DNA of 64,000 nucleotides from the IMG/VR virus record IMGVR_UViG_3300025896_000028; one strand, 5' to 3'. The position numbers were made by a program, and so were the translations under genes. The DNA comes from a virus. Within the stretch, counting starts at the first letter, position 1. Each line of letters starts with the position of its first letter. The notes beneath the pieces are model-generated. The model saw nothing but the letters and a program-made list of their open reading frames with translations, searched no databases and was not told where the DNA came from. Below are positions 1,058 through 61,971 of the stretch, in pieces.

Positions 1058-1069
1058 AAAAAGAAAAAC

Positions 1070-2064: not shown

Positions 2065-2065
2065 A

Positions 2066-3787: not shown

Positions 3788-3862
3788 TATTTTAGGTTTC
3801 TCTTGCTTTTTAATAAAAGTATTAGTACCTTTGTTAAATAACAATTTATAAAATTAACATTA

Positions 3863-4042
3863 ATGAATGAGCTTGTTAAAGTAGGTGTTGCCAACGAAGG
3901 TGAACAAACATTTCCACTAAGTGTCGTAAAAGAATGGCAACCAACTAACCTAACATATATTGGAAGTGCGGTATTCTTCAAAGTAGAAGATACATATTTT
4001 TCAATGAACACTTTAGATTTTAGAAACATTTTTGAATCATAA
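3863..4042 (+). CDS. small hypothetical protein (59 aa, below ORF-track cutoff)
   Basis: ATG about 30 nt downstream of a TAccTTTG promoter motif at ~3831; plus-strand ORF MNELVKVGVANEGEQ.. fills the gap. The minus-strand ORF 3727..4029 in the track is judged spurious. Confidence 0.4.
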   Translation: MNELVKVGVANEGEQTFPLSVVKEWQPTNLTYIGSAVFFKVEDTYFSMNTLDFRNIFES

Positions 4043-4044
4043 CT

Positions 4045-4488
4045 ATGAGTATAATTAAATCGATTCTAACGAATCACTTCGAGTACAAGATTACTAGAAA
4101 CTGGGACCGAACATTTTGGGCTTTTGATATTCATGGTACAATTCTTAAACCAAACTATACATTTGGTAGTACGCCAGATGAATTTTATCCAATGGCAAAA
4201 CAAACATTACAGTTCATCAGTCAACGACCAGACATTGTAATGTTCCTTTATACCTGTTCACACCCTAACGAGGTTGATGAGTATTTGGAATTGTTCAAAA
4301 AGAATGACATTCATTTTAAGTATGTGAATGAGAACCCAGAGGTTCCGACACAAACTAATGGATATGGATGTTACGATAAAAAACCTTACATGAATGTTTT
4401 GTTTGAGGACAAAGCTGGATTTGACCCAGAGAACGATTGGGGTTTGGTTTTAAATTTATTAACCGCTAACTATAATGGCAAGGATTAG
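4045..4488 (+). CDS. hypothetical protein
   Basis: ORF in operon context; no recognisable motif. Confidence 0.5.
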   Translation: MSIIKSILTNHFEYKITRNWDRTFWAFDIHGTILKPNYTFGSTPDEFYPMAKQTLQFISQRPDIVMFLYTCSHPNEVDEYLELFKKNDIHFKYVNENPEVPTQTNGYGCYDKKPYMNVLFEDKAGFDPENDWGLVLNLLTANYNGKD

Positions 4489-4837
4489 TGATTTATTAAC
4501 GTACAACTCAAATAAATTTGATAACATGAAGATTAAAACTGCTTCCGATGAAACAGTTTTATTATCTAGTAGTGAAGTCAAAGAAATTCTAACCAAATAT
4601 CTAAACGATGAGTTAGACTTTTTCGCAAAAGGTATCACAAAAGAAACGAAATCAGCGTTGACTGAAAGAGTTAACTTTAGACTTAAACAAATTGAAAGTA
4701 GCCTTGTTAGACATGTTGATGATAAAATAAACGGTATAACGGAAAAAATAGTTTCTTTGTCTACGAATAGAGTTATTGAGGAAGAAGTAAACAGACGGGT
4801 TGAGGCTCGTTTGAAAAAAATAAAAGATTCACTTTAA
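4475..4837 (+). CDS. hypothetical coiled-coil protein
   Basis: Overlapping start; charged heptad-like sequence. Confidence 0.5.
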   Translation: MARISDLLTYNSNKFDNMKIKTASDETVLLSSSEVKEILTKYLNDELDFFAKGITKETKSALTERVNFRLKQIESSLVRHVDDKINGITEKIVSLSTNRVIEEEVNRRVEARLKKIKDSL

Positions 4838-4847
4838 AAGTAAAAAT

Positions 4848-5147
4848 ATGAAAACAAAATTATTCATGACAGTATTTGTGCTGTTATTATTGACTGGATG
4901 TGCTGATGTGGCACATATACAATTCCTTGACCCTAACCAAGAAATCTATGGTTTCTGGGGTGGTGTTTGGCACGGTATGATTATGTTCCCAGCATTTATC
5001 TGTAGTCTTTTCTCAGATAACATTGCTATCTACGCTATAAACAATAACGGTTTCTGGTATAACTTCGGTTATGTTGGTGGGTTAGGTATTATAATCAAGG
5101 GTATCAAAATCTTTTTTGCTGGTTTAAGAAGTTTAAACAATAGATAA
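4848..5147 (+). CDS. small membrane/lipoprotein
   Basis: Signal peptide with lipobox-like LLLLTGC; hydrophobic segments. Confidence 0.5.
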   Translation: MKTKLFMTVFVLLLLTGCADVAHIQFLDPNQEIYGFWGGVWHGMIMFPAFICSLFSDNIAIYAINNNGFWYNFGYVGGLGIIIKGIKIFFAGLRSLNNR

Positions 5148-5905
5148 TGAAAAAGAAAATCGTAATTTTTAGTGGTGCTGGTTTAGATAGAGAGTCGGGT
5201 GTATTAACATTCCGTGACTGTAAAGATGGCCTTTGGAATAACCACAAAATCGAAGATGTTGCTACACCAGAAGGATGGGCTAAAGACCGAAGTAAAGTTC
5301 TAGATTTTTATAATGAAAGAAGAAGACAAATGCCAGAAGTTGTACCTAATGATGCACATATTGGTTTAGTTGAATTAGAAAAAGAATTTGATGTAATACA
5401 CGTTACACAGAATGTAAGTGACTTATTGGAAAGAGCTGGGGCGACAAACATTATTCACTTGCATGGTGAGTTGACCAAAGCTAGAACAAGCTTCGCAATG
5501 AATAACCCTAATGTTGTTGCATCACAACACGTATATGATATTGGTTATGATGATATTAATTTGGGTGATTTAGATGCAGAATATGAATCTCAATTAAGAC
5601 CACATATTGTATGGTTTAGTGAATATCCATTTGGGGTTGATAAAGCAAATCAAGCATTTAGAGATGCTGATGTTGTTTTGATTATAGGTACAAGTCTTCA
5701 AATTAGTTATACCATTGGATTTTTTGGGTTAACAAAATTAGAGACTCCTATTATCTATATTGACCCAGAACCAAGTCATGACTTGGATTATACTTATCGA
5801 GAATTAAAAGTTGAATATATAACCAAGACAGCAGTTGAAGGTGTAACACAAGTAGTAAATAGATTATTAACACAAGCAATCGGAGACGATAAAAACGACA
5901 AATAA
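5147..5905 (+). CDS. Sir2-family protein lacking zinc-binding cysteines (SirTM-like)
   Basis: N-terminal VIFSGAGLDRESGVLTFRD Rossmann motif of sirtuins; no CxxC..CxxC module. Confidence 0.7.
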   Translation: MKKKIVIFSGAGLDRESGVLTFRDCKDGLWNNHKIEDVATPEGWAKDRSKVLDFYNERRRQMPEVVPNDAHIGLVELEKEFDVIHVTQNVSDLLERAGATNIIHLHGELTKARTSFAMNNPNVVASQHVYDIGYDDINLGDLDAEYESQLRPHIVWFSEYPFGVDKANQAFRDADVVLIIGTSLQISYTIGFFGLTKLETPIIYIDPEPSHDLDYTYRELKVEYITKTAVEGVTQVVNRLLTQAIGDDKNDK

Positions 5906-5906
5906 G

Positions 5907-6260
5907 ATGCATTATTTTGTAGAAGGAACAATTAGACACATTGGTGAAGTACAGACATTTGGTGATAAATTCAAAAAAAGAGAATTTATCCTTGAAACTG
6001 ATGAAGCTTACCCAGAAAAATTAAAGTTAGATTTCATTAATGACAATGTAGATGCCTTGGATACCTTTATGGTAAACGAAGTTGTTACAGTTGCGTTTGT
6101 GGTTAAGGGTAGTGAATATCAAGGTAAGCACTACACCAATTTACGAGCAATAGCAATTTGTGAAGTTATTGACGAAAGAGCAGCAAAAGAATTCGCTAAA
6201 GCGAAAAAAGATAACAAAAGAGTTCAGCAATTGCTTGACTCCGTTAAAGTGAAAAAATAA
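5907..6260 (+). CDS. DUF3127 family protein
   Basis: GEVQTFGDKFKKREFILETDEAYPEKLKLDF..VAFVVKGSEYQGKHYTNLRA matches the Bacteroidota DUF3127 pattern. Confidence 0.6.
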   Translation: MHYFVEGTIRHIGEVQTFGDKFKKREFILETDEAYPEKLKLDFINDNVDALDTFMVNEVVTVAFVVKGSEYQGKHYTNLRAIAICEVIDERAAKEFAKAKKDNKRVQQLLDSVKVKK

Positions 6261-6535
6261 TGAAAAAAATAATATCTATCCTAATTTTAGGGTTATTTAT
6301 ATCTTGCAATAAGCCAAGTGATAAATATGTAGATTCACCAACACGTTTTGTAATTACTGGAATGCAAGGTGATAATAGTTTACAGCAAATGTCAATTTAT
6401 GAAGTAGAAGTAATTGATGGTAATTACTTTTCACATAGAGATGGGAACAACTTATCTTTTAGGTTTACAGATTCAGTTAACAAATTTAAGTTAGGTGATA
6501 TTATTAATTTCGAAAGAAAAAACATCATAGAATAA
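6260..6535 (+). CDS. lipoprotein
   Basis: Signal peptide ILILGLFISC (lipobox). Confidence 0.5.
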   Translation: MKKIISILILGLFISCNKPSDKYVDSPTRFVITGMQGDNSLQQMSIYEVEVIDGNYFSHRDGNNLSFRFTDSVNKFKLGDIINFERKNIIE

Positions 6536-6891
6536 TGAGTGTATTAAAATTAGAGTTAAAAGAAGAACACGTAAAATTACTTAAACATTTACGTTGGAGT
6601 CTTAACCCTCAAAATTTCATTGTTGGAGTTTCTGAGGAAGATGAACCAGCACCATTTGGTGAGAATAACATATATGAGGCAATTGACCTTATTCTTAATG
6701 GTGTCCCAAAGGAATTCGACCCGTTTAACACTGAAGAAATTCCTCAGTATTCTGATGAACAAAAAGCTGAGTGGGATAAATTATATTCTGAATTGCCGAT
6801 GGCATTGGATATTATTTTATATCGAGGTAGCTTTGAGTTAGGTAATTATAAAACTAAATTCCACGATAGAGTGTGGAAAAAAACAAACTAA
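6535..6891 (+). CDS. hypothetical protein
   Basis: ORF in operon context; no recognisable motif. Confidence 0.5.
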   Translation: MSVLKLELKEEHVKLLKHLRWSLNPQNFIVGVSEEDEPAPFGENNIYEAIDLILNGVPKEFDPFNTEEIPQYSDEQKAEWDKLYSELPMALDIILYRGSFELGNYKTKFHDRVWKKTN

Positions 6892-7221
6892 AATGAAAAC
6901 ATTAAAATTAATTGGTTATTTTCTAGCGGCATTGCTAGTGTTATTTATCATCAAAGGTATGTTCTTTGGAATATTCCTATTCACTATTGTATTGAAATAC
7001 ATACTGATAGCTGCTGTCGTTGCTGGAGTTCTTTATTTGTTTAATCGAAAAGGTAATAAATAGTAAATGATTTTTCTTTATTATTTTCTTGGGTTGATAG
7101 TCTTTATACATGTTGTAAGAGGACTATCTTATGCAATACATAAGATTATCTTATTCAACAAATATTTAAAGAAAGTTAAAAGAGAACTAGTAAATTATTT
7201 CAAAAAACATAAATAAATATT

Positions 7222-7251
7222 TGTTTATTCAAAATTTTTTATGTACCTTTG
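7222..7251 (+). promoter_or_regulatory. Bacteroidota-type sigma-A promoter (TTTG-N20-TACCTTTG)
   Basis: tttgtttattcaaaattttttatgTACCTTTG lies 16 nt upstream of the ATG at 7268. Confidence 0.6.
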
Positions 7252-7267
7252 TTAAAAATAAATAACT

Positions 7268-8260
7268 ATGAATGATTCAGTATTAGTAGCATTAGATGGT
7301 AGAGAAGATTTAGCGAATAACGTTATTGATTTTATCAATAACAATTCAAAGATAAAAGAGAAAGTAAAGCTAGACATAATCAACAGTCAGAAATTTTCTG
7401 ATGGTGAGTTATGTGTGGATTTCGAAACATCAATTAGAGGCAAGCGAGTATATATTCTATCTAGTCCTAACAATTCAGATGAAATCATAAAGTTAAACCT
7501 AGCGATAGATGCCGCCAAACGTGCAGCTGCTAGAGAGATTATTCCAATCTTACCTTATTTTCCATACGCTCGTCAAGACAAGAAAGACCAATCACGTGGA
7601 CCTATCGGTGCCAAGGTTATGGTTGAAATGATTGAGCATCGTGGAGCAACAGGTGTTATCACATTTGATTTACATGCTGACCAAATCCAAGGGTTTTTCA
7701 ATATCCCAGTTACACACTTAGAAGGTAAAAACGTATTTGATTCATACATCGCTTCGATATATGATGAAGACACTATTCTTTGTGGACCAGATGCTGGTTC
7801 TGGTAAACGTGTTAAACGTATGAAAGACCAATTATCTAACTACCACGACATTTCAATCAATTATGTAATGTTGGATAAGACTCGTAAACAAGCCAACGTT
7901 ATTGACGATATGGTAATCATTGGTGATGTTAGTGGTAAGAACGTAATCATCTTGGATGATATGGTTGATACTGCTGGAACACTTTGCAAAGCCGCTGAAG
8001 TTATTATGGAAGCTGGTGCTAAAAGTGTAAGAGCAATCATTAGTCATGGTATCTGTTCTGGTCCAGCTTTGGCTCGTATTGAAAATTCAGTTCTAACTGA
8101 ATTGGTTATTAGTGATTCCTTAAGAAAACCAACAGATTACAATGGTATCTTTGGTAATGATAAAATCAACGTGATTAGCATGTCAAAACAAATAGGTTTA
8201 GCTGTTAGTGCTATCAATAGTAAAACAAGCTACGAAGGACTTAAAAAAGAAAGATTCTAA
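7268..8260 (+). CDS. ribose-phosphate pyrophosphokinase (PRPP synthetase) homolog; possibly an ADP-ribose pyrophosphokinase (Adps-type)
   Basis: KFSDGE, DLHADQIQGFFNIPV and PRPP-binding loop VIILDDMVDTAGT are Prs-family hallmarks. Confidence 0.85.
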   Translation: MNDSVLVALDGREDLANNVIDFINNNSKIKEKVKLDIINSQKFSDGELCVDFETSIRGKRVYILSSPNNSDEIIKLNLAIDAAKRAAAREIIPILPYFPYARQDKKDQSRGPIGAKVMVEMIEHRGATGVITFDLHADQIQGFFNIPVTHLEGKNVFDSYIASIYDEDTILCGPDAGSGKRVKRMKDQLSNYHDISINYVMLDKTRKQANVIDDMVIIGDVSGKNVIILDDMVDTAGTLCKAAEVIMEAGAKSVRAIISHGICSGPALARIENSVLTELVISDSLRKPTDYNGIFGNDKINVISMSKQIGLAVSAINSKTSYEGLKKERF

Positions 8261-8451
8261 TGGCTGACTTTAACTTAAACGAAAAAGAAGTGGAAACACT
8301 TGCAAAGCTTGAAGAAAGCGTGAATTTATTACACGGTAAAGTTGGTAAGGTGTCTTATATTTTTTCTCACACTGGTATCGGTGTTCATGTAAAAGTAAGA
8401 TTTGAAGACTACGGGATTGAAAAAGATATAACCGATTATGACTCATGGTAA
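8260..8451 (+). CDS. small hypothetical protein
   Basis: Coupled start (TAATG); no recognisable motif. Confidence 0.45.
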   Translation: MADFNLNEKEVETLAKLEESVNLLHGKVGKVSYIFSHTGIGVHVKVRFEDYGIEKDITDYDSW

Positions 8452-9095
8452 TGGAAAAAGGATATAAAATACTTCAGAAAGCTTTTGACACAGAATTCTT
8501 AGACTTTTTTAGTAGAGATTTTGAAACAGTTGCTTTGCAATGTAAAGACGAAAATGTTTTTAGAACCAAGAATGGTGATGTAAAACAAATACAGAATTGC
8601 CAAGGGTATCATTTGTTTATGCGTTTAGCTAAACACATAAAAAAAGTCTTGGGTTATGATGGTGAAGTTATTAACATGCAGTATTTTATCAAACATCCAG
8701 ATTACAAGATAACAGCCCCACATCAAGACGGTGCGTACTTTGACAACAATGATGATGATATTTTAACCTTTTGGATTCCTTTGCATGATGTTGATGTTTC
8801 GACTTCAACTATGTTCTATGCTGATTGGGATGGCAAACGAGAAATAATCAACCATGAAAATTGTGGTTCAAATGTAAGAACTAGAACTGGTAAGACTGGT
8901 ATGTCACAATATACATCCGAAATTCCATTGGAAGACTTTACACCAGTAAAGTTGAAGTATGGTGATTGTGTTGTCCATAATCAATTCTCAGTTCATTATT
9001 CAAACGAAAATTCAACAACAAAACCAAGAATAGCAATTACATGCATTCTTAAACTAAACAAAAATGGAGAATCCAAATTACCCACACAGATTTAG
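8445..9095 (+). CDS. 2OG-Fe(II)/phytanoyl-CoA dioxygenase-like oxygenase
   Basis: HQDGAYFD (HxD) and a downstream His in a jelly-roll-like context. Confidence 0.5.
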   Translation: MVMEKGYKILQKAFDTEFLDFFSRDFETVALQCKDENVFRTKNGDVKQIQNCQGYHLFMRLAKHIKKVLGYDGEVINMQYFIKHPDYKITAPHQDGAYFDNNDDDILTFWIPLHDVDVSTSTMFYADWDGKREIINHENCGSNVRTRTGKTGMSQYTSEIPLEDFTPVKLKYGDCVVHNQFSVHYSNENSTTKPRIAITCILKLNKNGESKLPTQI

Positions 9096-9318
9096 CTTCA
9101 CGTATTCCGACAACAATAGAAATCCTATTCAATGTACTGTACTATGTAAAGAAAAACCTAATTATATTGATTTGGAAGACTTGATTTACGTTAAGTTTAA
9201 TCATTACATAACTGAAAACAAATCAGTTAAAATTTCAAAAAACAACATTATTAAGTTTCTGAATAACAATGGTATAGAGTGTGTTAATAGAGCTTATTAC
9301 AAATCTAATAAAAAATAA
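9064..9318 (+). CDS. hypothetical protein
   Basis: ORF in operon context; no recognisable motif. Confidence 0.4.
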   Translation: MENPNYPHRFSFTYSDNNRNPIQCTVLCKEKPNYIDLEDLIYVKFNHYITENKSVKISKNNIIKFLNNNGIECVNRAYYKSNKK

Positions 9319-9319
9319 C

Positions 9320-10090
9320 ATGGGATTATCTTTAGGAGATAGAATGAAAGAATTCTACGAAAACAGAACAAAAACTTTTTTGAATAGAAGAACCATTACC
9401 ATCATTAGACTTGATGGGAAAGGATTCTCTAAATTCACTAAAAATTTAAACAAACCATTCGATGATGGATTCAGTGATGACATGGATGCAACAGCAATCT
9501 TTTTATGTGAGAACATTCAAGGTGCCAAGTTTGCTTATACACAATCTGACGAAATTAGCGTGGTGTTGTGCGACTATGATACACTTGAAACAAGTGCATG
9601 GTTCGACTATAGCGTACAAAAGATGACAAGTATTGCAGCCTCTTTGGCAACTGCTAAGTTCAACCAATTAAGACATTTAAGGTCAACAATGCAAGGTATG
9701 GAAGGGTTAGCTGAAAGCTTAAACAAACTAGCTTTCTTTGATGCTCGTGTATTCCAAGTTCCTACTGTTGATGAAATGGTTAACGCAATGATTTTCAGAC
9801 AGCAAGACTGTACTAGAAATAGTATTAGTATGGCAGCATCTGCTAACTTCTCTCACAAACTATTAGAGGGTAAATCTGGTAGTGATAAACAGGAAATGTT
9901 ATTTAACGAGAAGGGTATCAATTGGAATGACTATAAAACCAAGTATAAACGTGGTGTAGTTATCAAAAGAGTAGCTGATATAGACTATAGTGGTGAAGCA
10001 GCTGCTGTTAGACGTAACTGGGTACCATTAGAAACACCTATATTCACTAGTGATAGGGATTTTCTAATAAATCTTATGCCTAAATTGTAA
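9320..10090 (+). CDS. tRNA-His guanylyltransferase (Thg1)-like 3'-5' nucleotidyltransferase (TLP)
   Basis: IIRLDGKGFSKFT, YTQSDEISVVL and RQQDCTRNSI match Thg1/TLP catalytic motifs. Start set to the ATG at 9320 (track begins at 9281, overlapping the upstream gene). Confidence 0.8.
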   Translation: MGLSLGDRMKEFYENRTKTFLNRRTITIIRLDGKGFSKFTKNLNKPFDDGFSDDMDATAIFLCENIQGAKFAYTQSDEISVVLCDYDTLETSAWFDYSVQKMTSIAASLATAKFNQLRHLRSTMQGMEGLAESLNKLAFFDARVFQVPTVDEMVNAMIFRQQDCTRNSISMAASANFSHKLLEGKSGSDKQEMLFNEKGINWNDYKTKYKRGVVIKRVADIDYSGEAAAVRRNWVPLETPIFTSDRDFLINLMPKL

Positions 10091-10167
10091 ATAATTAGGT
10101 ATGAATGTTGCAAATATACAATTAAATTCGTATTTTTGTATAAAATAACAAGTTTTAAAATAATAAA

Positions 10168-11748
10168 ATGGATTTTAAAGAATTAACTACAGAACAAATT
10201 GACTATGCTAGGGGTATTTATCAAGATAAAACTTTATCATGGGATGATAGAATGAATATTTTGGTTAAATTCTTTGGTAAATCAGAAAGAACAGTAAGAA
10301 AATGGTGTTCAGAACGATTAAATTTCAAAGAAAAGACTGAAATCGAACCAGAACAGTACGTAAAAGCTAAAGCTAAGGTACATGATGGTACTAAAAAACG
10401 ATTTATCATCACTTGGGCACAGAATAACACACCAGTACATAAGGGTTTCCTTAAGAATATTGAAGCTTATGCTGAATATATCAATGCGGATGTCCACGTA
10501 ATTGCTGGTAGGTATAAAAACCCAACTAGTATATGGTCAAATGACCAAGAAAATGAAGAATTTTGGGCTGATGAAGTAGTAAAATACCTAGATGCCAATA
10601 GACATGACATACATAAGTATGTTTCTATCCTATCAGATATCAAGATACAAGCTACTGCGGTTAATCCTATGACTGGGTTACAAGCATTGAGTGGTGTTAA
10701 TTCATCTATCTTCGGTAGTCCAAAGGTACAAATGGAAATGATTCCAGTACTAGAGGGTAATAAGCCTAAGATTATGCTTACCACTGGTTCTATTACCAAG
10801 AAAAACTATACTGATTCTAAATCTGGTAAGACTGGTGAGTTTCACCACACGTTTGGGTTTGTTATTGTTGAAATCAAAGATGATGAAACATTCTTTGTTA
10901 GACAAGTAACTGCCGATGATAAAACAGGTAACTTTAGTGATTTATATTACAGAGTTGAAGGTGGTTCTATTAGTGGTTTAAACACTATAGCTGCTGCTGT
11001 TCTAGGTGATATTCACTACGGACACCATGACCAAGAAGTTCTTGATTCAACTATGGGATTGTTAGATTCATTAAAACCAAAACACGTGATTCTTCATGAT
11101 GTTTTTGATGGAAATTCTATCAGTCATCACGAAATGAAAGACCCTTTTATTCAATATGGTAAAGAAGTTGCTGGAACCAACGACTTGGGTAAAGAGATTG
11201 ATTTGATGTTAGATGGATTGGGTGCATTCGCTAAGTTCGATAACGTTGTGATTGTTAGAAGTAACCATGATGATTTCTTAGACCGTTGGTTAAAGAATGA
11301 AGATTGGAAGAAACAACCAACATACAAGAACTCAAGACTTTACATGAAAATGTCTGATATGTTGTTGGAACAATATGGCAATGACCCTTACAATGTGAAA
11401 GGTGTTATTCCATGTATCATAAACGAGAAATTCCCTAAGTTCATTACTCTTGGTAGAAGTGCCACATATAGAGTTAAAGATTGGGAGCTTGGACAACATG
11501 GTGATATTGGTTCAAACGGTAGCCGTGGTTCATTGTTACAATTCCGTAAATTGAACACCAAGATTATCGTAGGTCACTACCATAGTCCAGGAAGAAAAGA
11601 CGGAGCATTGGCAGTGGGAACATCAACCAAGTTAAGAGTTGGTTATAACAAAGGGGCCAGCACATGGTTACAATCACACGTGATTATCCATAACGATGGA
11701 AGGTCACAACACATAAACTTCATTAACGGAGAGTTTACAACATTTTAA
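10168..11748 (+). CDS. calcineurin-like metallophosphoesterase with long N-terminal extension
   Basis: Metallophosphoesterase motifs GDIHYGHHD, LHDVFDG, VRSNHDDF and GHYHSP. No Walker A motif. Confidence 0.7.
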   Translation: MDFKELTTEQIDYARGIYQDKTLSWDDRMNILVKFFGKSERTVRKWCSERLNFKEKTEIEPEQYVKAKAKVHDGTKKRFIITWAQNNTPVHKGFLKNIEAYAEYINADVHVIAGRYKNPTSIWSNDQENEEFWADEVVKYLDANRHDIHKYVSILSDIKIQATAVNPMTGLQALSGVNSSIFGSPKVQMEMIPVLEGNKPKIMLTTGSITKKNYTDSKSGKTGEFHHTFGFVIVEIKDDETFFVRQVTADDKTGNFSDLYYRVEGGSISGLNTIAAAVLGDIHYGHHDQEVLDSTMGLLDSLKPKHVILHDVFDGNSISHHEMKDPFIQYGKEVAGTNDLGKEIDLMLDGLGAFAKFDNVVIVRSNHDDFLDRWLKNEDWKKQPTYKNSRLYMKMSDMLLEQYGNDPYNVKGVIPCIINEKFPKFITLGRSATYRVKDWELGQHGDIGSNGSRGSLLQFRKLNTKIIVGHYHSPGRKDGALAVGTSTKLRVGYNKGASTWLQSHVIIHNDGRSQHINFINGEFTTF

Positions 11749-11749
11749 T

Positions 11750-12175
11750 ATGGAAGATAATACAATTGAGATTAATGTGGATTTTGATGGAACGTGTGTA
11801 ACACATAGTTTCCCAGATGTGGGGTCAGACATAGGTTCTGTCCCCGTATTGAAAAGACTGACAGATAAAGGTCATAGACTTATTATCTTCACCATGAGAA
11901 GCAATCGACCATTTACCAAGTATGATGGTACGATTGACAATAATGGTTTGAATGATGTGGTTAAATGGTTCGCAGACAATGACATACCAGTTTATGGTAT
12001 TCAAACGAATCCGACCCAACACACATGGACTGAAAGTCCTAAAAGCTACGCACCATTAATGATTGATGATAGTGCTTTGGGTTGTCCTTTGAAGTATGAT
12101 TTAAGAATCTCACCCAGACCTTTTGTTGACTGGGGTAAGGTTGAGGAATGGTTAGAAAGTAGAGGTTTAATTTAA
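11750..12175 (+). CDS. HAD-superfamily phosphatase-like protein
   Basis: N-terminal DFDGT (DxDGT) motif. Confidence 0.5.
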   Translation: MEDNTIEINVDFDGTCVTHSFPDVGSDIGSVPVLKRLTDKGHRLIIFTMRSNRPFTKYDGTIDNNGLNDVVKWFADNDIPVYGIQTNPTQHTWTESPKSYAPLMIDDSALGCPLKYDLRISPRPFVDWGKVEEWLESRGLI

Positions 12176-12187
12176 AAATAAAAAACA

Positions 12188-12370
12188 ATGTACAAATTAT
12201 CGATTACTACACTTAAAGCTTTAAAGGCAGCTTTGGTAAACTCAAATGAAGTACTAACTGAATTGAGGGAAACAAATGATTTGCCATGGATATCTGGTGC
12301 AATCAAAAAAAACGAGGAACAAATTAGAATATTAACAGAACAATATTACATCGATGAAAGCACAAATTGA
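12188..12370 (+). CDS. small hypothetical protein
   Basis: ORF in operon context; no recognisable motif. Confidence 0.4.
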   Translation: MYKLSITTLKALKAALVNSNEVLTELRETNDLPWISGAIKKNEEQIRILTEQYYIDESTN

Positions 12371-12686
12371 TTTCTCTGAATTTTTAGAGATAGAAGGAAA
12401 ATTGGAAATTAAAATTGGTCGCATAACAGCATCTGAATCGGTACCAAAAAGCTATGGTATTAAATTAACCGTTGATTTCGGTAACGATGATGTTAGAACA
12501 GTTTTCACCAATTTAGGTAAAACATATAAACCAGAACAATTTATTGGTTTTGTAACACCATTCGTAACCAACTTGGCTCCAAGCGAAATCAAAGGTGTTT
12601 TGAGTCAAGCAATGATACTAGTTCCCCAAAACCTTAATGGTGATGATGAATGGTATGATTATTCAATAGGAACTAAATTATTATAA
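12354..12686 (+). CDS. tRNA-binding (CsaA/Trbp111/EMAP-like OB-fold) protein
   Basis: F.EF..L.L.IG.I..AE..P.SY..KL.VDFG......VF.....Y.PE.L.G pattern of the tRNA_bind domain. Confidence 0.6.
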   Translation: MKAQIDFSEFLEIEGKLEIKIGRITASESVPKSYGIKLTVDFGNDDVRTVFTNLGKTYKPEQFIGFVTPFVTNLAPSEIKGVLSQAMILVPQNLNGDDEWYDYSIGTKLL

Positions 12687-12687
12687 T

Positions 12688-12969
12688 ATGAAAAAGATTT
12701 ACAAATTTGAGGCCGATTTTGGTCGCATGGGAGAATTAGAAGGCGTATTCGTATCAACTGATGAAAAATTAGAAGCGTTATACGGAAAAGAAATTTATTT
12801 TGGTGAAGTGTTAGGTAAACATTCGGAAGTTATTTTAACACTAGATGTAGAACATATCACTGAAGTAACTGATGATGAAAAATTCATTGAACTTTTCGTA
12901 TTCTACAGGTTAGAAAATGGTTACAATCCTTTTGATTACTACGAAGAAGACGAAGAAGACGAAGAATAA
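12688..12969 (+). CDS. hypothetical protein with poly-acidic C-terminus
   Basis: Ends EEDEEDEE, encoded by a gaagaagac repeat. Confidence 0.45.
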   Translation: MKKIYKFEADFGRMGELEGVFVSTDEKLEALYGKEIYFGEVLGKHSEVILTLDVEHITEVTDDEKFIELFVFYRLENGYNPFDYYEEDEEDEE

Positions 12970-13421
12970 TGGCAAAGGTAATTGCAGCTGGTTTATTTAT
13001 CGTAAGAAAGGATAAAAAACTATTGATTTGTCATCCGACAAATCATGCCGAAGACTTTTACAGCATACCCAAGGGTAAGGTAGAGAAAGATGAAACTTTT
13101 TTAGAGGGTGCTTTTAGAGAAACCTATGAAGAAACTAATCTAAGTTTAAAAGATAGTAATAAATTTACTATTTACCCTTTGCAATCAGTCAACTATACAC
13201 ATAAAAGAAAGATACTATATCCTTTTTTATGTTTAGAGAACTTTGATTCAAAGATTGAATGGGGTGCTGTTGAGTTAAAGTGTAATTCCGATGTAGAAGA
13301 TGCTCGTGGTAACTTCCCAGAAATGGATGGTTATAAATGGGTAACACTAGAAGAAGCTAGACCACTGTTACATAACACACAGGCAGCTTGTATCGATAAG
13401 ATTTTACAAATAATTGGATAA
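12969..13421 (+). CDS. NUDIX hydrolase
   Basis: Nudix box GKVEKDETFLEGAFRETYEETNL. Confidence 0.75.
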   Translation: MAKVIAAGLFIVRKDKKLLICHPTNHAEDFYSIPKGKVEKDETFLEGAFRETYEETNLSLKDSNKFTIYPLQSVNYTHKRKILYPFLCLENFDSKIEWGAVELKCNSDVEDARGNFPEMDGYKWVTLEEARPLLHNTQAACIDKILQIIG

Positions 13422-28553: not shown

Positions 28554-28841
28554 TTGCAAAAACACTTGCATATTAAATAAAAAGGTAGTACCTTTGTAAT
28601 ATAATTACGCATAGAAAGATAAACAAGTAAGTGCCATACAGCTATGGAGACAAAATATGGGAAGTGAAAGACCCCATACCTTACAACACAACAAGAAGTG
28701 TTATGTTTGTTGAGTATGATAATGAAAGGGTAGTCAGAATAACTAAAGTATTTTTGCAAGAGGAAATAGTTATAGGGGTTCAACTCCCCCATACGCCAAG
28801 TGCTGGGGTATGAGACAGATTTATCCCAATCTTGATGGATG

Positions 28842-28935
28842 TGTGATTAACGGAGAAGCTTTGGATGGAAGTTGGGTTCGAGTCCCAAGGAAGGTCATGG
28901 CTGATAGCTTAGCGGCTTGTAGAGGTTCGAATCCT
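28842..28935 (+). tRNA. tRNA-like element (~94 nt, isotype unresolved)
   Basis: Perfect 7-bp acceptor ggagaag/cttctcc; T-arm agagg-ttcgaat-cctct. Contains an internal hairpin ttggg-ttcgagt-cccaa whose loop would present CGA. D-region is non-canonical. Confidence 0.35.
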
Positions 28936-29374
28936 CTCTTCTCCACGCTACTTTAGTCAGTTTATGAACTGGCACTTGCAGTGGGATTCTGCACATGATG
29001 ATTTTTTTGTTCGAGGTTAACAGATAGTGGAACCACCATTAATGCCAGTAAGGTCTGGCGTGTGACACAAGGCTTAGCGGCTGGGAGTGTAATCAAAACC
29101 AATTAGACTTGGTATGTCTATCCACTATTAGTCAATTACAAATGGCGTATGTTAATTAAGAGGTAGCACTGGCAACTATGCCGTAAATAGTAGGGAGTAC
29201 AAGTTCCTAAAGAGATGAAGCAGATGCAATATTCTCGTGCATGTACGCTACTCACCGATTTGTATAGGTGACAAGAATTAGATAAGTGGTGGAAAAGCTA
29301 AGCTGACTTCATTAGAAGTGGTGGTTCTGGGAGAATCTTAAATTAGTAGACACATAACGGCTTGGAGCAATTGG

Positions 29375-29445
29375 GGATAGCTCGTTAAACACTCAATCCG
29401 AGCGTGGCTAGCTTGGCGGTGCAAGTTCAAATCTTGCCTTATCTA
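29375..29445 (+). tRNA. tRNA-like element (~71 nt)
   Basis: T-arm gcaag-ttcaaat-cttgc; acceptor ggatagc/cttatct pairs at 6 of 7 positions; weak D-arm. Confidence 0.3.
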
Positions 29446-29482
29446 CTAAAACTGGTGACAGAGTAAGCTGAACACACATAGT

Positions 29483-29806
29483 ATGAAACTAAAAAGAGAA
29501 AATGTTTTCCCATGGGAAAATGCTATTAATGACCTTCTTTACGAAATGGAAGGTAATGAAGATTATTTAAAAGGTGCTGAAGATTTTTTAAAACTTTTAA
29601 ATGATAAAAGACTATTAAATAGTAAATATCAAATTGGCGATTTAGTCAAGATTAATTTCGGTGATACTGGAACAATTAAAAATTGTAAAGTCATAAAAGT
29701 ACATTTTACACATGATAAAATATTATATGATGTTACAGTTCAACTTAATGTGACACACATCACTAGACTATACAACATTGACAGCGTTTTCGTTGTCGGA
29801 AAATAA
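29483..29806 (+). CDS. hypothetical protein embedded in the RNA-gene region
   Basis: 107-aa ORF with an ATG start between tRNA-like elements. Confidence 0.45.
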   Translation: MKLKRENVFPWENAINDLLYEMEGNEDYLKGAEDFLKLLNDKRLLNSKYQIGDLVKINFGDTGTIKNCKVIKVHFTHDKILYDVTVQLNVTHITRLYNIDSVFVVGK

Positions 29807-30158
29807 AAACCGTTCGTAAGGAAGAATGATTGGAAGTTCTTTTGTTTGAAATGTTAGTTTTTAATTTGAGGGGTACGTAACCCGATAACAAGGTTCCTAG
29901 CATTAGAAAGAAAAGTATTCGCTGGTGGTCATAAGCCAGAGATTGTGGGTTCGAGTCCCATCCTTACCACAAGTCGCTTTGATGTTCCACTATGGAGAGC
30001 AGTTTGGATAGTTATGAAACTGGTAGCAGAATAGAGGTTTTAAAAGTTTAACCATAATAAAGCACGGCTTATTCCCAAAGAAAGGGGTTTCCTAGCCTAA
30101 TACAGAAACAAAAATAACATGAGGGTGTGTTAACCGAGGCTAAAGGTAGCACCCAAAT

Positions 30159-30362
30159 GGTTAGATGGCAGAATGGAATTGCTAATTAACAAGGTTAAGT
30201 AATGGGTTGCCGATGAGATGAGTTAGTGGACAAGTCGTGTAAACAGGTGTAACATTCATCAACCCAATAAAAGTCGTAATAATAATAAAACCTTATGTCC
30301 CAGTCAAATGGTGTCGACTAAGCGACTATAATTACACACAGGTTCGATTCCTGTTCTAACCA
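30159..30362 (+). tRNA. tRNA-like element with a ~130-nt insertion between D-arm and T-arm (candidate intron-containing tRNA)
   Basis: Perfect acceptor ggttaga/tctaacc; U8; canonical D-arm gcag-aatggaa-ttgc; candidate anticodon stem aatta/taatt flanking the insertion; T-arm acagg-ttcgatt-cctgt; ends ..ACCA. Confidence 0.35.
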
Positions 30363-30594
30363 CGAAGCCTGTTCGAGAGGTAAATCTAAGCGTAATCCTC
30401 TGACGTATAAGGTGCTTAGCTGATTGAGAAGCAGTCTTGGACAATGTGTCTGAAAATATCTTGACTATTCGGAAAGACGAAGATTACTACTTGACATGAG
30501 GCGTTAGCGACACCGAGAGTAGGGTAACAAAGAAAGACGCTCCGTGATGCTAATGATTCGGATATATGTTACTCGTTGCTGGTAGTAATCAAAT

Positions 30595-30668
30595 GGGAGT
30601 ATAGTACAATAGTATAGTATAAAGCGGCTGTAGCTGCGAGAACACGGGTTAGAGTCCCGTTACTTCCA
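30595..30668 (+). tRNA. tRNA-like element (74 nt), anticodon arm non-canonical
   Basis: Acceptor gggagta/tacttcc (7 bp including one GU); D-stem gtac/gtat; T-arm acggg-ttagagt-cccgt; discriminator A. The anticodon position is occupied by a gcggc-tgta-gctgc tetraloop hairpin. Confidence 0.4.
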
Positions 30669-30781
30669 CAAGAAATCCAACGGTTAAGCCCTATGGTCAC
30701 TGTACACAAACTATGGTAATTGGCAATGACGATGTGCACTCTTCATACTGCAATGGTTGACACTAGGAAAGACTAGAAACT

Positions 30782-30880
30782 GCGAGAGTGGCGAAGTTGG
30801 TAAACGCTAAGGTCTTTAGCCCGAAGTACAAGGGAACAACTAGGGACGTGGTGTCGGTGGTTCGAGTCCACCCTCTCGCA
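30782..30880 (+). tRNA. tRNA-like element (~99 nt), possibly type II or intron-containing
   Basis: Perfect acceptor gcgagag/ctctcgc; 3-bp D-stem gcg/cgc with an 11-nt loop; T-arm ggtgg-ttcgagt-ccacc; discriminator A. 48 nt lie between the D-arm and T-arm. Confidence 0.45.
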
Positions 30881-30977
30881 CAAAATTGGGGAATAGCAAC
30901 ATGAAGGTCGGCAAACTTTCAGACGGTTATAATCCTTTCTATCACGTTTAGCTTTGCCGAGCGACATGGTGATAGTT

Positions 30978-31048
30978 GATTCATTAGTGGAGTGGAACCA
31001 CGGGGGGCGTTGAGCCCGCAGACACTGGTTCGAATCCAGTATGAGTTT
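30978..31048 (+). tRNA. tRNA-like element (~71 nt)
   Basis: Acceptor gattcat/atgagtt (2 GU pairs); D-arm gtgg-agtggaa-ccac; T-arm actgg-ttcgaat-ccagt; weak anticodon stem with loop ttgagcc (possible GAG). Confidence 0.35.
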
Positions 31049-31156
31049 CTAGGTTATACTATTAAAGCGACATTGGTTGAGTAGTCCAGTGAGGGCACAC
31101 ATTAACAGTTTTAGCGAAAGGCTAAGGTGATAGACCACCATATAGTATAACCGAAT

Positions 31157-31255
31157 ATATAGCTAGCTCAGTGGTAGAGTGCCGAAATGGGAGCACATCG
31201 GAAGATGCAGTACCAATCGCTTGCGGAGATGGGGGTTCGATTCCCTCGCTATGTA
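31157..31255 (+). tRNA. tRNA-like element (~99 nt)
   Basis: Acceptor atatagc/gctatgt; D-arm gctc-agtggta-gagt; T-arm ggggg-ttcgatt-ccctc; 49 nt lie between the D-arm and T-arm. Confidence 0.45.
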
Positions 31256-31272
31256 CTAAAAAAGAATACAAT

Positions 31273-31968
31273 ATGAAGATAGTAGCACTAGGTGATACAC
31301 ATGGTCGTGTATTATGGGAAGAAATCGTGAAAAAAAATAAGGATGCTGATAAAATTATCTTCATAGGTGACTATTTTGATACTCATTACGATATAACTAC
31401 TGACCAACAGATAGAAAACTTCACAAAAATTTTAGAATTCAAGAAAAATAACATGGAACAAGTAGTTTTACTTCTTGGTAACCATGATTTTCACTATTTA
31501 AAAGGTGCTGGTGAGAAATATTCTGGTCATGATACCTTCAGAGCGTTAGATATTAACATAGTTTTGCAACCCGCAGTCGATTCTGGACTAATTCAGATGT
31601 GTTTTAAACATGACAAATACGTTTTTACACATGCTGGGGTAACAAAAACATGGTGTTTACGCAATGGAATCAAAACAAATGACCTAGAAAAGGAGATAAA
31701 TGATAAATTTACTACTGAATTAGATTCATTTTGCTTTGCATATGGACAAAATATGAGTAGAACAGGTAATGATGTGACTCAATCACCTATATGGGTGCGT
31801 ATTCCATCACTATTTGCTGATGCTATTGACGATATTACCTATGTAATAGGGCATACTACACAAGAAAGTATCGTAATTACTGATAAAATCATAGCTATAG
31901 ACACTATAGGTACTAGTGGGGAATACCTAGTAATAGAAAATAATGTACCCACACCAGAAAAACTTTAG
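31273..31968 (+). CDS. calcineurin-like metallophosphoesterase
   Basis: IVALGDTHGR, FIGDYFD and LLGNHDFHY motifs. The track's 5' extension (31171) overlaps the tRNA-like element, so the start is re-set to the ATG at ~31273. Confidence 0.7.
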   Translation: MKIVALGDTHGRVLWEEIVKKNKDADKIIFIGDYFDTHYDITTDQQIENFTKILEFKKNNMEQVVLLLGNHDFHYLKGAGEKYSGHDTFRALDINIVLQPAVDSGLIQMCFKHDKYVFTHAGVTKTWCLRNGIKTNDLEKEINDKFTTELDSFCFAYGQNMSRTGNDVTQSPIWVRIPSLFADAIDDITYVIGHTTQESIVITDKIIAIDTIGTSGEYLVIENNVPTPEKL

Positions 31969-61757: not shown

Positions 61758-61971
61758 ATGGTTAAACAGGAAGTAACATACTACCCAGATACATTTAGAA
61801 TCAAAGAATACAAAGAATATCATAACGATGTTTTAGTTGTTCACACCAAATATGATGAGAACAACAAAAAGGTTTATATATATCTAGCCTATGCTGATTT
61901 TCTATGGGAAACTAAAGAAAAAATATTGGTGTAGATTTGCATATATGAAATATTATATGTACCTTTGTACT

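Follow-up and report, generated by a model that had tools for sequence, protein, structure and literature searches.

Phage tRNA islands are usually viewed as supplements that serve codon usage or act against host defence. In the Lak megaphages the tRNAs contain "enigmatic", highly conserved introns at position 37/38 (Devoto et al. 2019, PMC6784885), and one of these inserts holds a nested T-arm-like hairpin (PMC6784885). Structured non-coding RNAs, GOLLD (RF02032) and ROOL (RF03087), occur in or beside phage tRNA islands; both oligomerise via kissing loops, and tRNAs are sometimes found inside the GOLLD linker (Kretsch et al. 2025, PMC12286853).

Here we describe a locus within 64 kb of a ~230-kb jumbo-phage genome, IMGVR_UViG_3300025896_000028 (the whole stretch analysed is referred to as the window; the nearest relative contig is 233 kb), in which nearly every "tRNA" has its frame under selection and its decoding end rebuilt. 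The locus is similar to that of Lak in its oversize tRNA genes, in the very large size of the phage genomes and in being missed by bacterial tRNA finders. As in Lak, anticodon-loop inserts are near-identical between relatives, which holds here for the units that we call A and B, and the T-arm-like hairpin within one Lak insert may be compared with units B, A and E2. Lak tRNAs, however, are canonical once the insert is gone, whereas most units here have no recoverable anticodon loop; moreover, some of the present inserts separate the D region from the anticodon arm, and one is a module common to an independent RNA family, the W RNA. With GOLLD and ROOL the locus shares self-complementary loops, carried by the hairpin of unit A and by W RNA, yet the present units are 72-204 nt long, each is framed by tRNA ends and their order is shuffled between relatives, and the GOLLD and ROOL models gave no match in 28400-31400 even at E<=10.

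The tRNA shape also scaffolds or punctuates other RNAs in engineered tRNA scaffolds, MALAT1 mascRNA, the MHV68 TMERs and the stable RNAs C and D of the T4 tRNA cluster. In these, as may be the case here, it serves RNase P/RNase Z processing and stability, with another element at or beside the anticodon arm, but to our knowledge none of them forms a conserved multi-member phage island.

A cluster of tRNA-framed units

T-arm-like stems start at positions 28775, 28872, 28921, 29421, 29945, 30338, 30644, 30856, 31024 and 31231 of the window; all ten hairpins listed in a preliminary description of this DNA are thus present, within ~5 nt of where it placed them. The motif GTTCRANTC occurs 12 times in the 64-kb window against 4.8 expected, and nine of the 12 copies fall within 28778-31243, all on the + strand, where the expectation for that strand is ~0.1. 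The region is ORF-poor and GC-elevated, as had been described: its GC content is 0.41-0.47 versus 0.27-0.35 in the flanks, and 29483-29806 is the sole credible ORF in a stretch otherwise nearly ORF-free. Seven T arms had been assigned a 5' acceptor partner at tRNA-like distance, and seven perfect 7-bp pairings are indeed found, but three of them span 166, 204 and ~155 nt, beyond such a distance. Eight tRNA-shaped units of 72-204 nt were resolved (94, 166, ~155, 204, 74, 99, 72 and 99 nt in island order, against 72-93 nt for canonical tRNAs). Acceptor stem and T arm are present in every one of them, and a D arm in seven. The features of the region are as follows.

28775..28798, + strand: E1, orphan T-arm-like hairpin GGGG-UUCAACU-CCCC, followed by CAUACGCC-A
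28852..28945, + strand: E2 ("double-T"), 94 nt, with a 7-bp acceptor stem and a true T arm
28946..29279, + strand: conserved non-coding spacer, with a ~120-nt domain closed by a 15-bp inverted repeat (I8)
29280..29445, + strand: E3, 166 nt, with acceptor AGAUAAG/CUUAUCU, U8-G9 and T arm
29815..29969, + strand: E4, ~155 nt, with D arm GAAU/GUUC, GG in its loop, and T arm
30159..30362, + strand: E5, 204 nt, with acceptor GGUUAGA/UCUAACC (7 Watson-Crick pairs), U8-G9 and T arm
30595..30668, + strand: E6, 74 nt, with G1-C72, G2-C71, G3:U70 and A73, the alanine identity set
30782..30880, + strand: A (E7), 99 nt, with a Leu-like D arm; Rfam tRNA 41.5 bits
30881..30977 and 31050..31156, + strand: conserved, structured spacers on either side of E8, with inverted repeats I1 and I4
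30978..31049, + strand: E8, 72 nt, the only near-canonical tRNA, anticodon UUG (Gln); found by ARAGORN, Rfam 40.9 bits
31157..31255, + strand: B (E9), 99 nt; Rfam tRNA 43.4 bits

The preliminary description had given the coordinates of the two 99-nt units exactly and the length of the 94-nt unit correctly, but had placed the latter at 28842-28935 instead of 28852-28945. Standard tools do not fold all elements as canonical 72-90-nt tRNAs: ARAGORN with default settings reports a single tRNA in the whole 64-kb window (30978-31049, one of nine elements), and the gathering score of the Rfam tRNA model (RF00005) is reached by four units, two of which are the 99-nt ones with 38-39 nt looped out. The non-tRNA matches of Rfam in 28400-31400 at E<=10 were low-scoring snoRNA, miRNA, plastid UTR and tmRNA fragments far below gathering score, with no Intron_gpI match among them, and neither ARAGORN nor the Rfam tmRNA and tmRNA_permuted models found a tmRNA above threshold in the window.

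A conserved frame and a rebuilt anticodon end

Each of the eight units has an acceptor stem of 7 bp and a discriminator A with C after it, and its T arm combines a 5-bp stem with a loop of the GTTCRANNC type; seven of the eight retain U8 and a D arm with GG. None has a full canonical anticodon arm (5-bp stem, 7-nt loop, U33 and purine at 37), and only E8 has a near-normal one. The anticodon end is changed in three ways. In A and B the anticodon loop holds a conserved insert; in E3, E4 and probably E5 a large structured insert separates the D region from a hairpin that resembles an anticodon arm; and in E6 and E2 the arm has been exchanged for a short hairpin. As the anticodon end is rebuilt with conserved extra domains, most units cannot be ordinary decoding tRNAs.

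The segment 30758-31244 is 89% identical to the related contig L011 and 86% to L013, the SmpB proteins of which are only 71-72% identical to that of the window, and the RNA blocks are the only DNA-level matches of the window to these two contigs. Conservation of the inserts exceeds that of the protein genes on either side. Among related jumbo-phage contigs the order of the units is shuffled, indicating that they are separate modules. Comparison within families, most of which comprise 2 to 7 distinct sequences and hence offer limited power to detect covariation, shows that the tRNA frame is maintained by compensatory evolution and that the inserts are nearly frozen.

Units A, B and E8

In A the anticodon arm is lengthened to an 8-bp helix. 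The hairpin that caps it, AGCCC-GAAGUACAA-GGGAAC (30818-30837), is P1 of W RNA. W is a widespread pseudoknotted phage RNA absent from Rfam, for which we built a model (R1) consisting of P1 with its palindromic loop, GAAGAU, P2, P3 (CCRA-AUCGUNNG-UYGG) and an H-type pseudoknot. Full W copies elsewhere score 43-120 bits with R1. The window holds no full W RNA, R1 with filters off matching only 30818-30884 at 23.5 bits with P1 alone aligning, and unit B does not match R1. In other phages W RNA is directly flanked by tRNA genes, and oversize tRNA-like genes akin to those of the island recur next to W RNA in many metagenomic phage tRNA islands.

A Watson-Crick palindrome is present in the apical loop of 40 of 40 P1 variants. 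The palindromes are of 12 different kinds, GCGCGC, GUGCAC, CCGCGG and CUGCAG among them; the loop shared by A and W has 9 nt, GAA-GUAC-AA, with its self-complementary tract lying between purines. The dimerisation initiation site of HIV-1 is a kissing-loop hairpin, to which P1 is similar in form, not by homology, having a 9-nt loop with a self-complementary centre and purine flanks, but the GUAC tract is merely 4 nt long and dimerisation of P1 is putative.

Five orthologues of A are ~97% identical. Allowing for introns (ARAGORN -i), A is read as "tRNA-Stop(tta)", with anticodon UUA and a 23-nt insert. In its predicted fold the anticodon triplet pairs with nucleotides of the insert in an extended anticodon-intron helix. 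This helix is continuous over 8 bp and has one bulge, of 5 nt, unlike a bulge-helix-bulge, in which a 4-bp helix lies between two 3-nt bulges.

B has, instead of an anticodon arm, a 45-nt arm (CCGAA...UGCGG) within which an irregular hairpin ends in a GNRA tetraloop. ARAGORN -i makes this unit "tRNA-Pro(ggg)" and places an insert of 28 nt at 37/38, with U33 present and position 37 a purine; a clear bulge-helix-bulge is not apparent in its predicted folds (energy-based folds and inspection). Among seven homologues, compensatory changes are found in 9 of 16 acceptor, D and T pairs versus 0 of 12 pairs of the insert arm. The 45-nt arm is nearly invariant in these homologues, its cap varying within GNRA (GGAA, GUGA, GAAA), and the "anticodon" is GGG or GAG. 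Once the insert is removed, the rebuilt anticodon stems of A and B each contain one mismatched pair (ARAGORN -i).

E8 departs from the canon by G33 and one anticodon-stem mismatch. Its anticodon is UGG in L001, the nearest relative, and L011 has a canonical UUU loop.

Units E1 to E6

E1 has no convincing 5' partner and shows a weak match to the 3' end of Rfam tmRNA (12.5 bits). The segment that holds it, 28721-28822, is an indel missing from L001, and E1 is probably a remnant. In E2 a second T-arm-like hairpin (28872-28888), the nested hairpin noticed earlier, occupies the usual place of the D and anticodon arms; the unit scores 25.8 bits with Rfam tRNA, below threshold. Orthologues of E2 are present in L079, L011, L013 and the unrelated contig L049, and across them both hairpins covary and GGAAGGU is invariant.

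At the anticodon-arm position E3 has a 6-bp hairpin with a 7-nt loop, GUGGCUA, containing U33, and a ~95-nt multi-helix insert separates this hairpin from the D region. RNAalifold of five E3 sequences gave 45 pairs, 12 of them with compensatory changes, acceptor and T stems included. E4 has a ~80-nt insert followed by an anticodon-arm-like hairpin with CAU in a 7-8-nt loop and G33, and its 3' part scores 17 bits with Rfam tRNA. Its acceptor stem is mismatched at 1:72 in four of four sequences (N1 is C or A opposite C72) and has two covarying pairs (U-A to G-C and A-U to G-C). In E5 a Leu-like D arm (GCAGAAUGGAAUUGC) precedes a ~130-nt insert. The only orthologue of E5 is in the near-identical L001, which leaves covariation without power for this unit. 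In its acceptor and D arm E5 is similar to a long tRNA-like family, AGUYAGG, found beside W RNA in other phages.

The anticodon arm of E6 is the hairpin GCGGC-UGUA-GCUGC, a 5-bp stem with a UGUA tetraloop, as had been described for this 74-nt unit, and E6 is therefore without an anticodon loop. The unit scores 40 bits with Rfam tRNA, with a fold z of -2.8. In its L079 orthologue the hairpin is retained with the loop UGAU, and a D-loop U to G change is paired with a T-loop A56 to C56 change, a covariation of the 19:56 elbow pair.

Spacers and neighbouring genes

The spacers are 97-334 nt long, GC-rich, conserved and closed by long terminal helices. That at 28946-29279, for which Rfam gave no match, is 79% identical to L011 and L013; the arms of its inverted repeat are 29017-29031 and 29121-29135, and 29019-29128 is 90% identical to L079. 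The spacer at 31050-31156 is closed by the 11-bp stem GGUUAUACUAU/AUAGUAUAACC.

Near the island the window encodes the Thg1-like protein, RNase R, SmpB and IF3 that had been reported as its neighbours, all four confirmed here, together with a HAD_SAK_1 "RNA repair" gene and two metallophosphoesterase genes. A NAD+ salvage set and a sigma-70 factor are also encoded in the window. Judging by its SmpB, sigma-70 factor, IF3 and RNase R genes, the phage has a host of bacterial type.

Discussion

We tentatively prefer the reading that the units are tRNA-scaffolded functional RNAs. The stretch 28.85-31.26 kb would be a phage "tRNA island" made up almost wholly of tRNA-derived but non-canonical genes and transcribed as a precursor, which RNase P and a 3' endonuclease would cleave at every tRNA frame; with CCA added, the products would be stable tRNA-shaped RNAs and the intervening structured spacers. 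The inserts would be kept in the mature RNAs as functional parts, A offering a kissing hairpin with its self-complementary GUAC, B an arm that ends in GNRA and E6 a tRNA body that would accept alanine without having an anticodon, and the tRNA frame would provide processing, stability and access to tRNA-binding proteins. In agreement with this, the T arms cluster on one strand, ARAGORN fails on most units while Rfam recognises some, and the units are conserved in related contigs with covarying frames. Moreover, the inserts behave as modules and not as junk, the arm of B being near-invariant and the insert of A being the P1 of W with its palindromic loop. In E6 and E2 excision cannot yield an anticodon loop, and there is nothing to splice out. 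A highly conserved insert would, however, also be expected if a sequence-specific endonuclease had to recognise it.

In the account that we consider the next in probability, and a serious rival, the units are intron-containing tRNA genes and the inserts are cut out by a phage-specific endonuclease with healing and sealing, or by another route, to yield decoding tRNAs: Leu(UAG) or UUA from A, Pro(GGG) from B, GGC from E3 and CAU from E4. The island and the "enigmatic introns" of Lak megaphages would then represent one phenomenon, and the oversize Lak tRNAs with their highly conserved 37/38 inserts (PMC6784885) speak for this account. As one of two options, the preliminary description had suggested that the tRNAs are ordinary and carry small introns or a long variable arm. 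This is tenable for A and B, which become formally acceptable tRNAs upon removal of one contiguous anticodon-loop insert (23 and 28 nt, respectively; ARAGORN -i), that of B lying at the canonical 37/38 with U33 and a purine at 37, but it fails elsewhere. No excision rescues E6 or E2. In E3-E5 a non-standard site would have to be used, as the insert follows the D region and precedes the anticodon arm, a position at which we know of no bacterial or phage intron.

The position of the B insert and the pairing of the A triplet in an extended anticodon-intron helix are reminiscent of archaeal and eukaryal pre-tRNAs, yet the predicted fold of A has no bulge-helix-bulge geometry, its 5' strand forming a continuous helix, and the host is of bacterial type. 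Thg1-like, HAD_SAK_1 "RNA repair" and two metallophosphoesterase genes near the island likewise speak for splicing, but neither a splicing endonuclease nor an RNA ligase was recognised among the ORFs of the 64-kb window. Group I introns in the tRNA genes of cyanobacteria and Patescibacteria are at least ~200 nt long, so that the inserts of A and B are far too short for one, and Rfam found none. The anticodon-like triplets of E3 (GGC), E4 (CAU) and E8 (UUG) match well-used codons, but the "anticodon" of B shifts from GGG to GAG, and that of E8 between UUG, UGG and UUU, with no matching changes in the tRNA body, and E3 has the Ala-like GGC yet lacks G3:U70. A tRNA with anticodon UUA would read UAA and suppress the main stop codon of the phage, used by 77 of 88 ORFs. 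Finally, queries with the predicted spliced junctions found no insert-less alleles of A or B in IMG/VR.

It is conceivable, though improbable, that the island encodes an RNA-based machine. The tRNA-shaped RNAs would associate, mutually or with W-type RNAs, via kissing loops (A) and GNRA contacts (B), and E6 would reach ribosomes or tRNA-binding proteins, for example with phage SmpB, to rescue or hijack translation. E6 is like tmRNA in its acceptor with G3:U70 and A73, its T arm and its lack of an anticodon, and the SmpB gene lies 1.3 kb downstream, but it has neither an mRNA-like tag frame nor pseudoknots and its D stem is present. A tag frame is found in no unit, E5 (204 nt) having by inspection no usable one, and the linkage between SmpB and the island is loose, as related phages keep SmpB without an adjacent island. 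If this account were true, it would define a new functional class in jumbo phages, that of oligomerising, possibly aminoacylated tRNA-scaffold RNAs.

The units had also been suggested to be decoys or mimics. Mimicry in a broad sense is upheld by the conserved tRNA shape with its remodelled decoding end, whereas a decoy role is not specifically supported. Decoys or sponges would bind up tRNA-targeting defence nucleases of the host, or toxins or modification enzymes, and so keep them off real tRNAs, which would agree with selection on the upper half of the tRNA and with a window rich in counter-defence and RNA-repair genes (the NAD+ salvage set, Thg1-like, HAD_SAK_1 and RNase R). The anticodon loop, however, is what most known defence nucleases directed at tRNAs recognise, and it is this usual target that is missing or buried in most units. 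The frozen, module-like inserts (kissing hairpin and GNRA arm) would be left unexplained by a simple decoy role, a defence-related partner was not identified and no tested feature points specifically to decoys; we therefore regard this explanation as doubtful.

Equally doubtful is that the units are processing punctuation, RNase P/RNase Z handles that are themselves functionless and solely release the structured spacer RNAs. The conserved spacers with their long terminal helices would make plausible cargo, and W RNA is directly flanked by tRNA genes elsewhere, but for this purpose nothing more would be needed than plain tRNAs or minimal minihelices of acceptor and T arm, and neither the invariant inserts nor the D arms, nor the elbow covariation and the alanine identity set, would be explained. 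A decaying array of tRNA pseudogenes, to which the orphan T arm E1, absent from L001, and the rejection of most units by ARAGORN might point, is very hard to credit: the perfect 7-bp acceptor stems are upheld by compensatory changes, this covariation largely refuting decay, the inserts outdo the flanking protein genes in conservation and the same units occur in phages with SmpB only 71-72% identical.

Concrete targets for mutation that emerge from the analysis are the GUAC kissing loop, the GNRA cap and the G3:U70 pair. Retention of the inserts would mean that phages have in the tRNA shape a natural scaffold for RNAs with other functions; their splicing would mean that an undescribed non-group-I pathway of tRNA splicing operates in viruses that infect bacteria. 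Either outcome bears on the nature of the "enigmatic introns" of Lak and on the role of GOLLD- and ROOL-type RNAs in phage tRNA islands.

Results

A cluster of T arms that standard tools do not all fold as canonical tRNAs

Across the 64-kb window there are 12 occurrences of the motif GTTCRANTC as compared to 4.8 expected, and nine of the 12 lie within 28778-31243, all on the + strand; a tenth T arm, with the loop UUAGAGU, was read from the sequence at 30644, beyond the motif count. The GC content of this stretch is 0.41-0.47 versus 0.27-0.35 in the flanks, and 29483-29806 is the sole credible ORF inside it. The Rfam tRNA threshold was passed by 31157-31255 and 30782-30880, each 99 nt long with 38-39 nt of the anticodon region looped out, by 30595-30668 with its entire anticodon arm looped out and, in a more permissive run, by 30978-31048; the element at 28852-28945 scored 25.8 bits, below the threshold. 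ARAGORN in default mode detected one tRNA in the whole window (30978-31049, anticodon UUG). Motif clustering and both programs thus bear out the preliminary description, which had reported a T-arm cluster with non-canonical folds; standard tools do not fold all of its elements as canonical tRNAs. Its hand folds were essentially right, except that the coordinates of the 94-nt unit were off by 10 nt, the true position being 28852-28945.

Ordinary tRNAs are ruled out by default-mode ARAGORN, the Rfam alignments and folding. Inserts and spacers gave no Rfam match at E<=10 to group I introns, GOLLD, ROOL, Y RNA or known ribozymes, and cultured phages in INPHARED gave no match to the island. Upstream, the non-coding stretch 28558-28722 is 83-88% identical in the relatives L001 and L011 and may hold the island promoter or leader; a sigma-70 consensus scan found no site in it. 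The same upstream region carries a 14-nt inverted repeat (28554-28567 with 28746-28759).

Three types of decoding end

The scan for units required a T stem of 5 bp with G53-C61 as the closing pair and, after it, a 3' strand of 7 nt that pairs perfectly with a 5' strand upstream.

tRNA-shaped units of the island
28852-28945, + strand: E2, 94 nt
29280-29445, + strand: E3, 166 nt
29815-29969, + strand: E4, the eighth unit, with six Watson-Crick acceptor pairs and 1:72 mismatched
30159-30362, + strand: E5, 204 nt
30595-30668, + strand: E6, 74 nt
30782-30880, + strand: A, 99 nt
30978-31048 (to 31049 in ARAGORN), + strand: E8, about 71 nt
31157-31255, + strand: B, 99 nt

All units except E2 have U8 (A8 in E4) and a D arm, the D loop containing GG in six of them and GU in E6. 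The 3' end is a discriminator A and then C, with no encoded CCA, in all units except E8. E1 (28775-28798), an orphan T arm that L001, the closest relative, lacks, is likely to be a remnant.

The decoding ends are of three types. In A and B the insert lies within the anticodon loop: ARAGORN in intron mode reads A as 'tRNA-Stop(UUA)' with a 23-nt insert and B as 'tRNA-Pro(GGG)' with a 28-nt insert at 37/38, and rescues no other unit. In E3 and E4 a large insert separates the D region from an anticodon-arm-like hairpin, which in E3 has a 6-bp stem and the loop GUGGCUA and in E4 has a loop of 7-8 nt that contains CAU, position 33 being G; E5 is probably of this type as well. In the third type the arm is replaced outright, by GCGGC-UGUA-GCUGC in E6 and by a second T-arm-like hairpin in E2.

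Many other phage tRNA islands contain tRNA-like genes of 105-165 nt, and those of L040 and L064 include oversize genes whose inserts precede an intact anticodon arm. Several oversize genes share the hairpin GAUUCUU-NNNN-AAGAAUC, followed by RAACAGCGA and located between the D arm and an intact anticodon arm (UUU).

Oversize tRNA-like genes in other islands
L040 2836-2955, 4134-4262, 5526-5649 and 9040-9158, all - strand: oversize tRNA-like genes
L064:4236-4355 and 5740-5861: oversize tRNA-like genes
L036:3666-3772 and 3857-3988: oversize tRNA-like genes
L010:9903-10065: oversize tRNA-like gene

The frames covary among relatives and the inserts are conserved

Relatives were collected as SmpB-anchored loci from IMG/VR. 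The lineage is one of jumbo phages, with relative contigs of 205-369 kb, and the nearest relatives of the window RNase R come from uncultured phages of 634-642 kb. Over the island, identity to L001 (233 kb) is 97-98%. The SmpB proteins of L011 and L013 are only 71-72% identical to that of the window; blastn aligns the RNA blocks of these two relatives at 75-89% and finds no match for the adjacent protein-coding genes in L011. A further relative, L079 (362 kb), retains E2, E3, E6 and A. The units are separate modules, given that L011 and L013 lack both E5 and E6 and that unit order varies among relatives. The ORF at 29483-29806 encodes 107 aa, has a tandem 21-nt internal repeat and gave no Pfam or PHROG match; it lies within the RNA island only in this phage, since L001, L011 and L013 join 29452 directly to 29805.

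Covariation supports the predicted tRNA frames of E2, E3, E4 and E6. In E3, 12 of 45 predicted pairs show compensatory changes, including pairs of the acceptor stem spanning 165 nt; the acceptor stem of E4 changes from U-A to G-C and from A-U to G-C in homologues, and both hairpins of E2, a homologue of which was found in the unrelated contig L049, covary. E6 has a D-loop U and T-loop A56 in the window versus G and C56 in L079, which amounts to compensation at the tertiary 19:56 elbow pair.

For B, a metagenome search added only two new homologues among 19 hits. Across its seven homologues, 9/16 acceptor, D and T pairs changed on both sides as compared to 0/12 proposed pairs of the 45-nt insert arm, most of which never vary, and only GNRA-type sequences (GGAA, GUGA or GAAA) occupy the apical tetraloop. 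A is ~97% identical in five phages. Searching IMG/VR with predicted spliced-junction patterns revealed no insert-less allele of A or B, the 10 hits for the B junction all being chance matches in coding DNA. These alignments indicate that the inserts are constrained as sequences.

A carries a hairpin of a phage RNA, W

A 20-mer from A, AGCCCRAAGTACAAGGGAAC, was found in 59 viral contigs and, beyond this lineage, forms the 5' hairpin (P1) of W, a ~115-nt conserved element of phage tRNA islands found in 59 contigs by one pattern and 72 by another; a second pattern scan together with the model R1 yielded 66 copies, and among MAG records only three contain W.

L036:3551-3663: type example of W, with further copies in L024-L139

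W consists of P1, a GAAGAU joiner, a variable P2, P3 (CCRA-AUCGUNNG-UYGG) and an H-type pseudoknot with an A-rich loop. In an alignment of 23 sequences 92.5% of cells pair and 14/19 pairs changed on both sides, a result reached by 0/500 shuffles. W is not in Rfam 15 and has no match in the cultured phage genomes of INPHARED. Of 53 W contexts, 26 have a tRNA-like gene within 15 nt after W; ten of the 26 belong to a family with the acceptor AGUYAGG, nine are 101-126 nt long, and E5 resembles this family in its acceptor (GGUUAGA) and D arm. A more distant SmpB relative of the lineage, the contig of L046 and L015, carries a tRNA island with GOLLD RNA (186 bits), a small SRP RNA and W (L046:4390-4794, - strand).

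The P1 apical loops differ in sequence and always hold a self-complementary tract, of which there are 12 kinds (GUAC, GCGCGC, GUGCAC, CCGCGG, CUGCAG, UGGCCA, AGCGCU, UGCGCA, UUCGAA, UGAUCA, UUAA and AGUACU). A palindrome of at least 4 nt is present in 40/40 distinct P1 variants and one of at least 6 nt in 25/40, as compared to 9.9 on average, and 19 at most, in shuffles. From sequence, the simplest reading is that P1 would act as an intermolecular kissing or dimerisation hairpin, and the palindromic loop suggests a kissing-loop homodimer of W; in form P1 is like the HIV-1 DIS, which we take to be a formal likeness. P1 could instead be a DNA-level protein site or promoter, but the existence of twelve distinct palindromes is more in keeping with a loop that self-pairs as RNA than with a single protein site. 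The likeness of P1 to a sarcin-ricin loop or 5S loop E was seen by eye only (AGUAC...GGAAC); such mimicry was rejected, as the flanks cannot pair and the loops of other W copies are quite different.

The window holds P1 only, inside A: no full W is hidden in the spacers, where nothing else matches R1, and the B insert, suspected by eye to be a homologue of the W core GAAGAU...CCAAUCG, has no match to the model. The P1 sequence appears in no paper of the literature searched.

Gene neighbourhood

Genes in the window
14-13421: NAD+ salvage/ADP-ribose set upstream of the island (NAPRTase, PRPP synthase, NUDIX, Sir2, NADAR)
9281-10090, 18296-18811, 23625-24281 and 31273-31968: Thg1-like 3'-5' polymerase, HAD_SAK_1 and two calcineurin-like phosphoesterases, flanking the island
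61891-62721: ADP-ribosylglycohydrolase, further downstream

HAD_SAK_1, the HAD domain of 'Swiss Army Knife' RNA-repair proteins, lies upstream of the island, as do the Thg1-like protein, IF3, RNase R, an AAA ATPase, an SPFH protein and one metallophosphoesterase; the second metallophosphoesterase is downstream with SmpB and a sigma-70 factor. The NAD+ salvage/ADP-ribose set, accompanied by an R2K ATP-grasp gene, is typical of counter-defence against NAD-depleting systems. Thg1-like enzymes (TLPs) repair substrates of the kind represented by a 5'-shortened acceptor stem and, speculatively, the conserved 1:72 mismatch of E4 could be such a stem and a candidate Thg1-like substrate.

Neither ARAGORN nor Rfam found a tmRNA, standard or two-piece, as a partner of the adjacent SmpB, and in several SmpB-bearing relatives the island does not adjoin SmpB. 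On inspection, stop codons lie in the frame of the UAA run of E5, and downstream pairing of the E1 T arm, absent from L001, gives only G:G at 3:70, so that neither was retained as tmRNA or part of one. DUF805b RNA motifs (Rfam RF02914) occur ~4.5 kb downstream of SmpB in two relatives (L004:10904-10937, L010:10896-10930).

Discussion

We conclude that the tRNA-derived, tRNA-shaped RNAs of this region form a conserved island and have rebuilt decoding ends. Our leading reading, held tentatively and a little short of an even chance, is that the units are functional RNAs on a tRNA scaffold that keep their inserts. That they are spliced, intron-bearing tRNAs of the Lak megaphage type is less likely, though a serious rival, and decoding has observations in its favour: the B insert lies at the canonical intron site 37/38, the anticodon-like triplets of the units correspond to used codons, and the E8 variants match CAA, CCA and AAA, the top codons for Gln, Pro and Lys. 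In addition, Lak megaphages carry conserved, formally similar inserts in otherwise canonical tRNAs (PMC6784885).

Against ordinary decoding, E6 and E2 are without an anticodon loop, E3 has the alanine triplet GGC yet A3-U70, and the same tRNA body in B carries GGG in six homologues and GAG in the remaining one. The E8 anticodon likewise switches on one tRNA body, being UUG in the window (30978-31049), UGG in the 98%-identical L001 (4979-5050) and UUU in L011 (3693-3765). E6 carries G1-C72, G2-C71, G3:U70 and A73, the alanine identity set, and as AlaRS does not read the anticodon, this unit is predicted to accept alanine while being unable to decode. No RNA ligase or splicing endonuclease was recognised among the window ORFs, and PHROG and Pfam searches of the unknown neighbouring ORFs for such enzymes found nothing.

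A as parsed by ARAGORN would read UAA, which also counts against decoding. Of the 88 + strand ORFs with 100 or more codons, 77 stop at TAA, 11 at TAG and 0 at TGA, and window genes contain no in-frame stops or TGA, none needing read-through. Stop-codon recoding that requires a UUA suppressor was accordingly rejected, TAA being the main stop and TGA merely avoided; this apparent avoidance could reflect a host or late-gene set with reassigned TGA.

We regard decoys, raised in the preliminary description, as improbable, and assign a similarly low likelihood to units that serve as processing punctuation only. Pseudogenes are very improbable indeed.

In the literature searched we found no description of the units or of W, which is also absent from Rfam, nor of the kissing-hairpin module, an alanine-identity unit without an anticodon or inserts between the D region and the anticodon arm. 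As precedents exist in the 'enigmatic introns' of Lak phages (PMC6784885) and in the tRNAs inside GOLLD linkers (PMC12286853), the island is a new variant within a kind already known, though unexplained, and does not make a category of its own.
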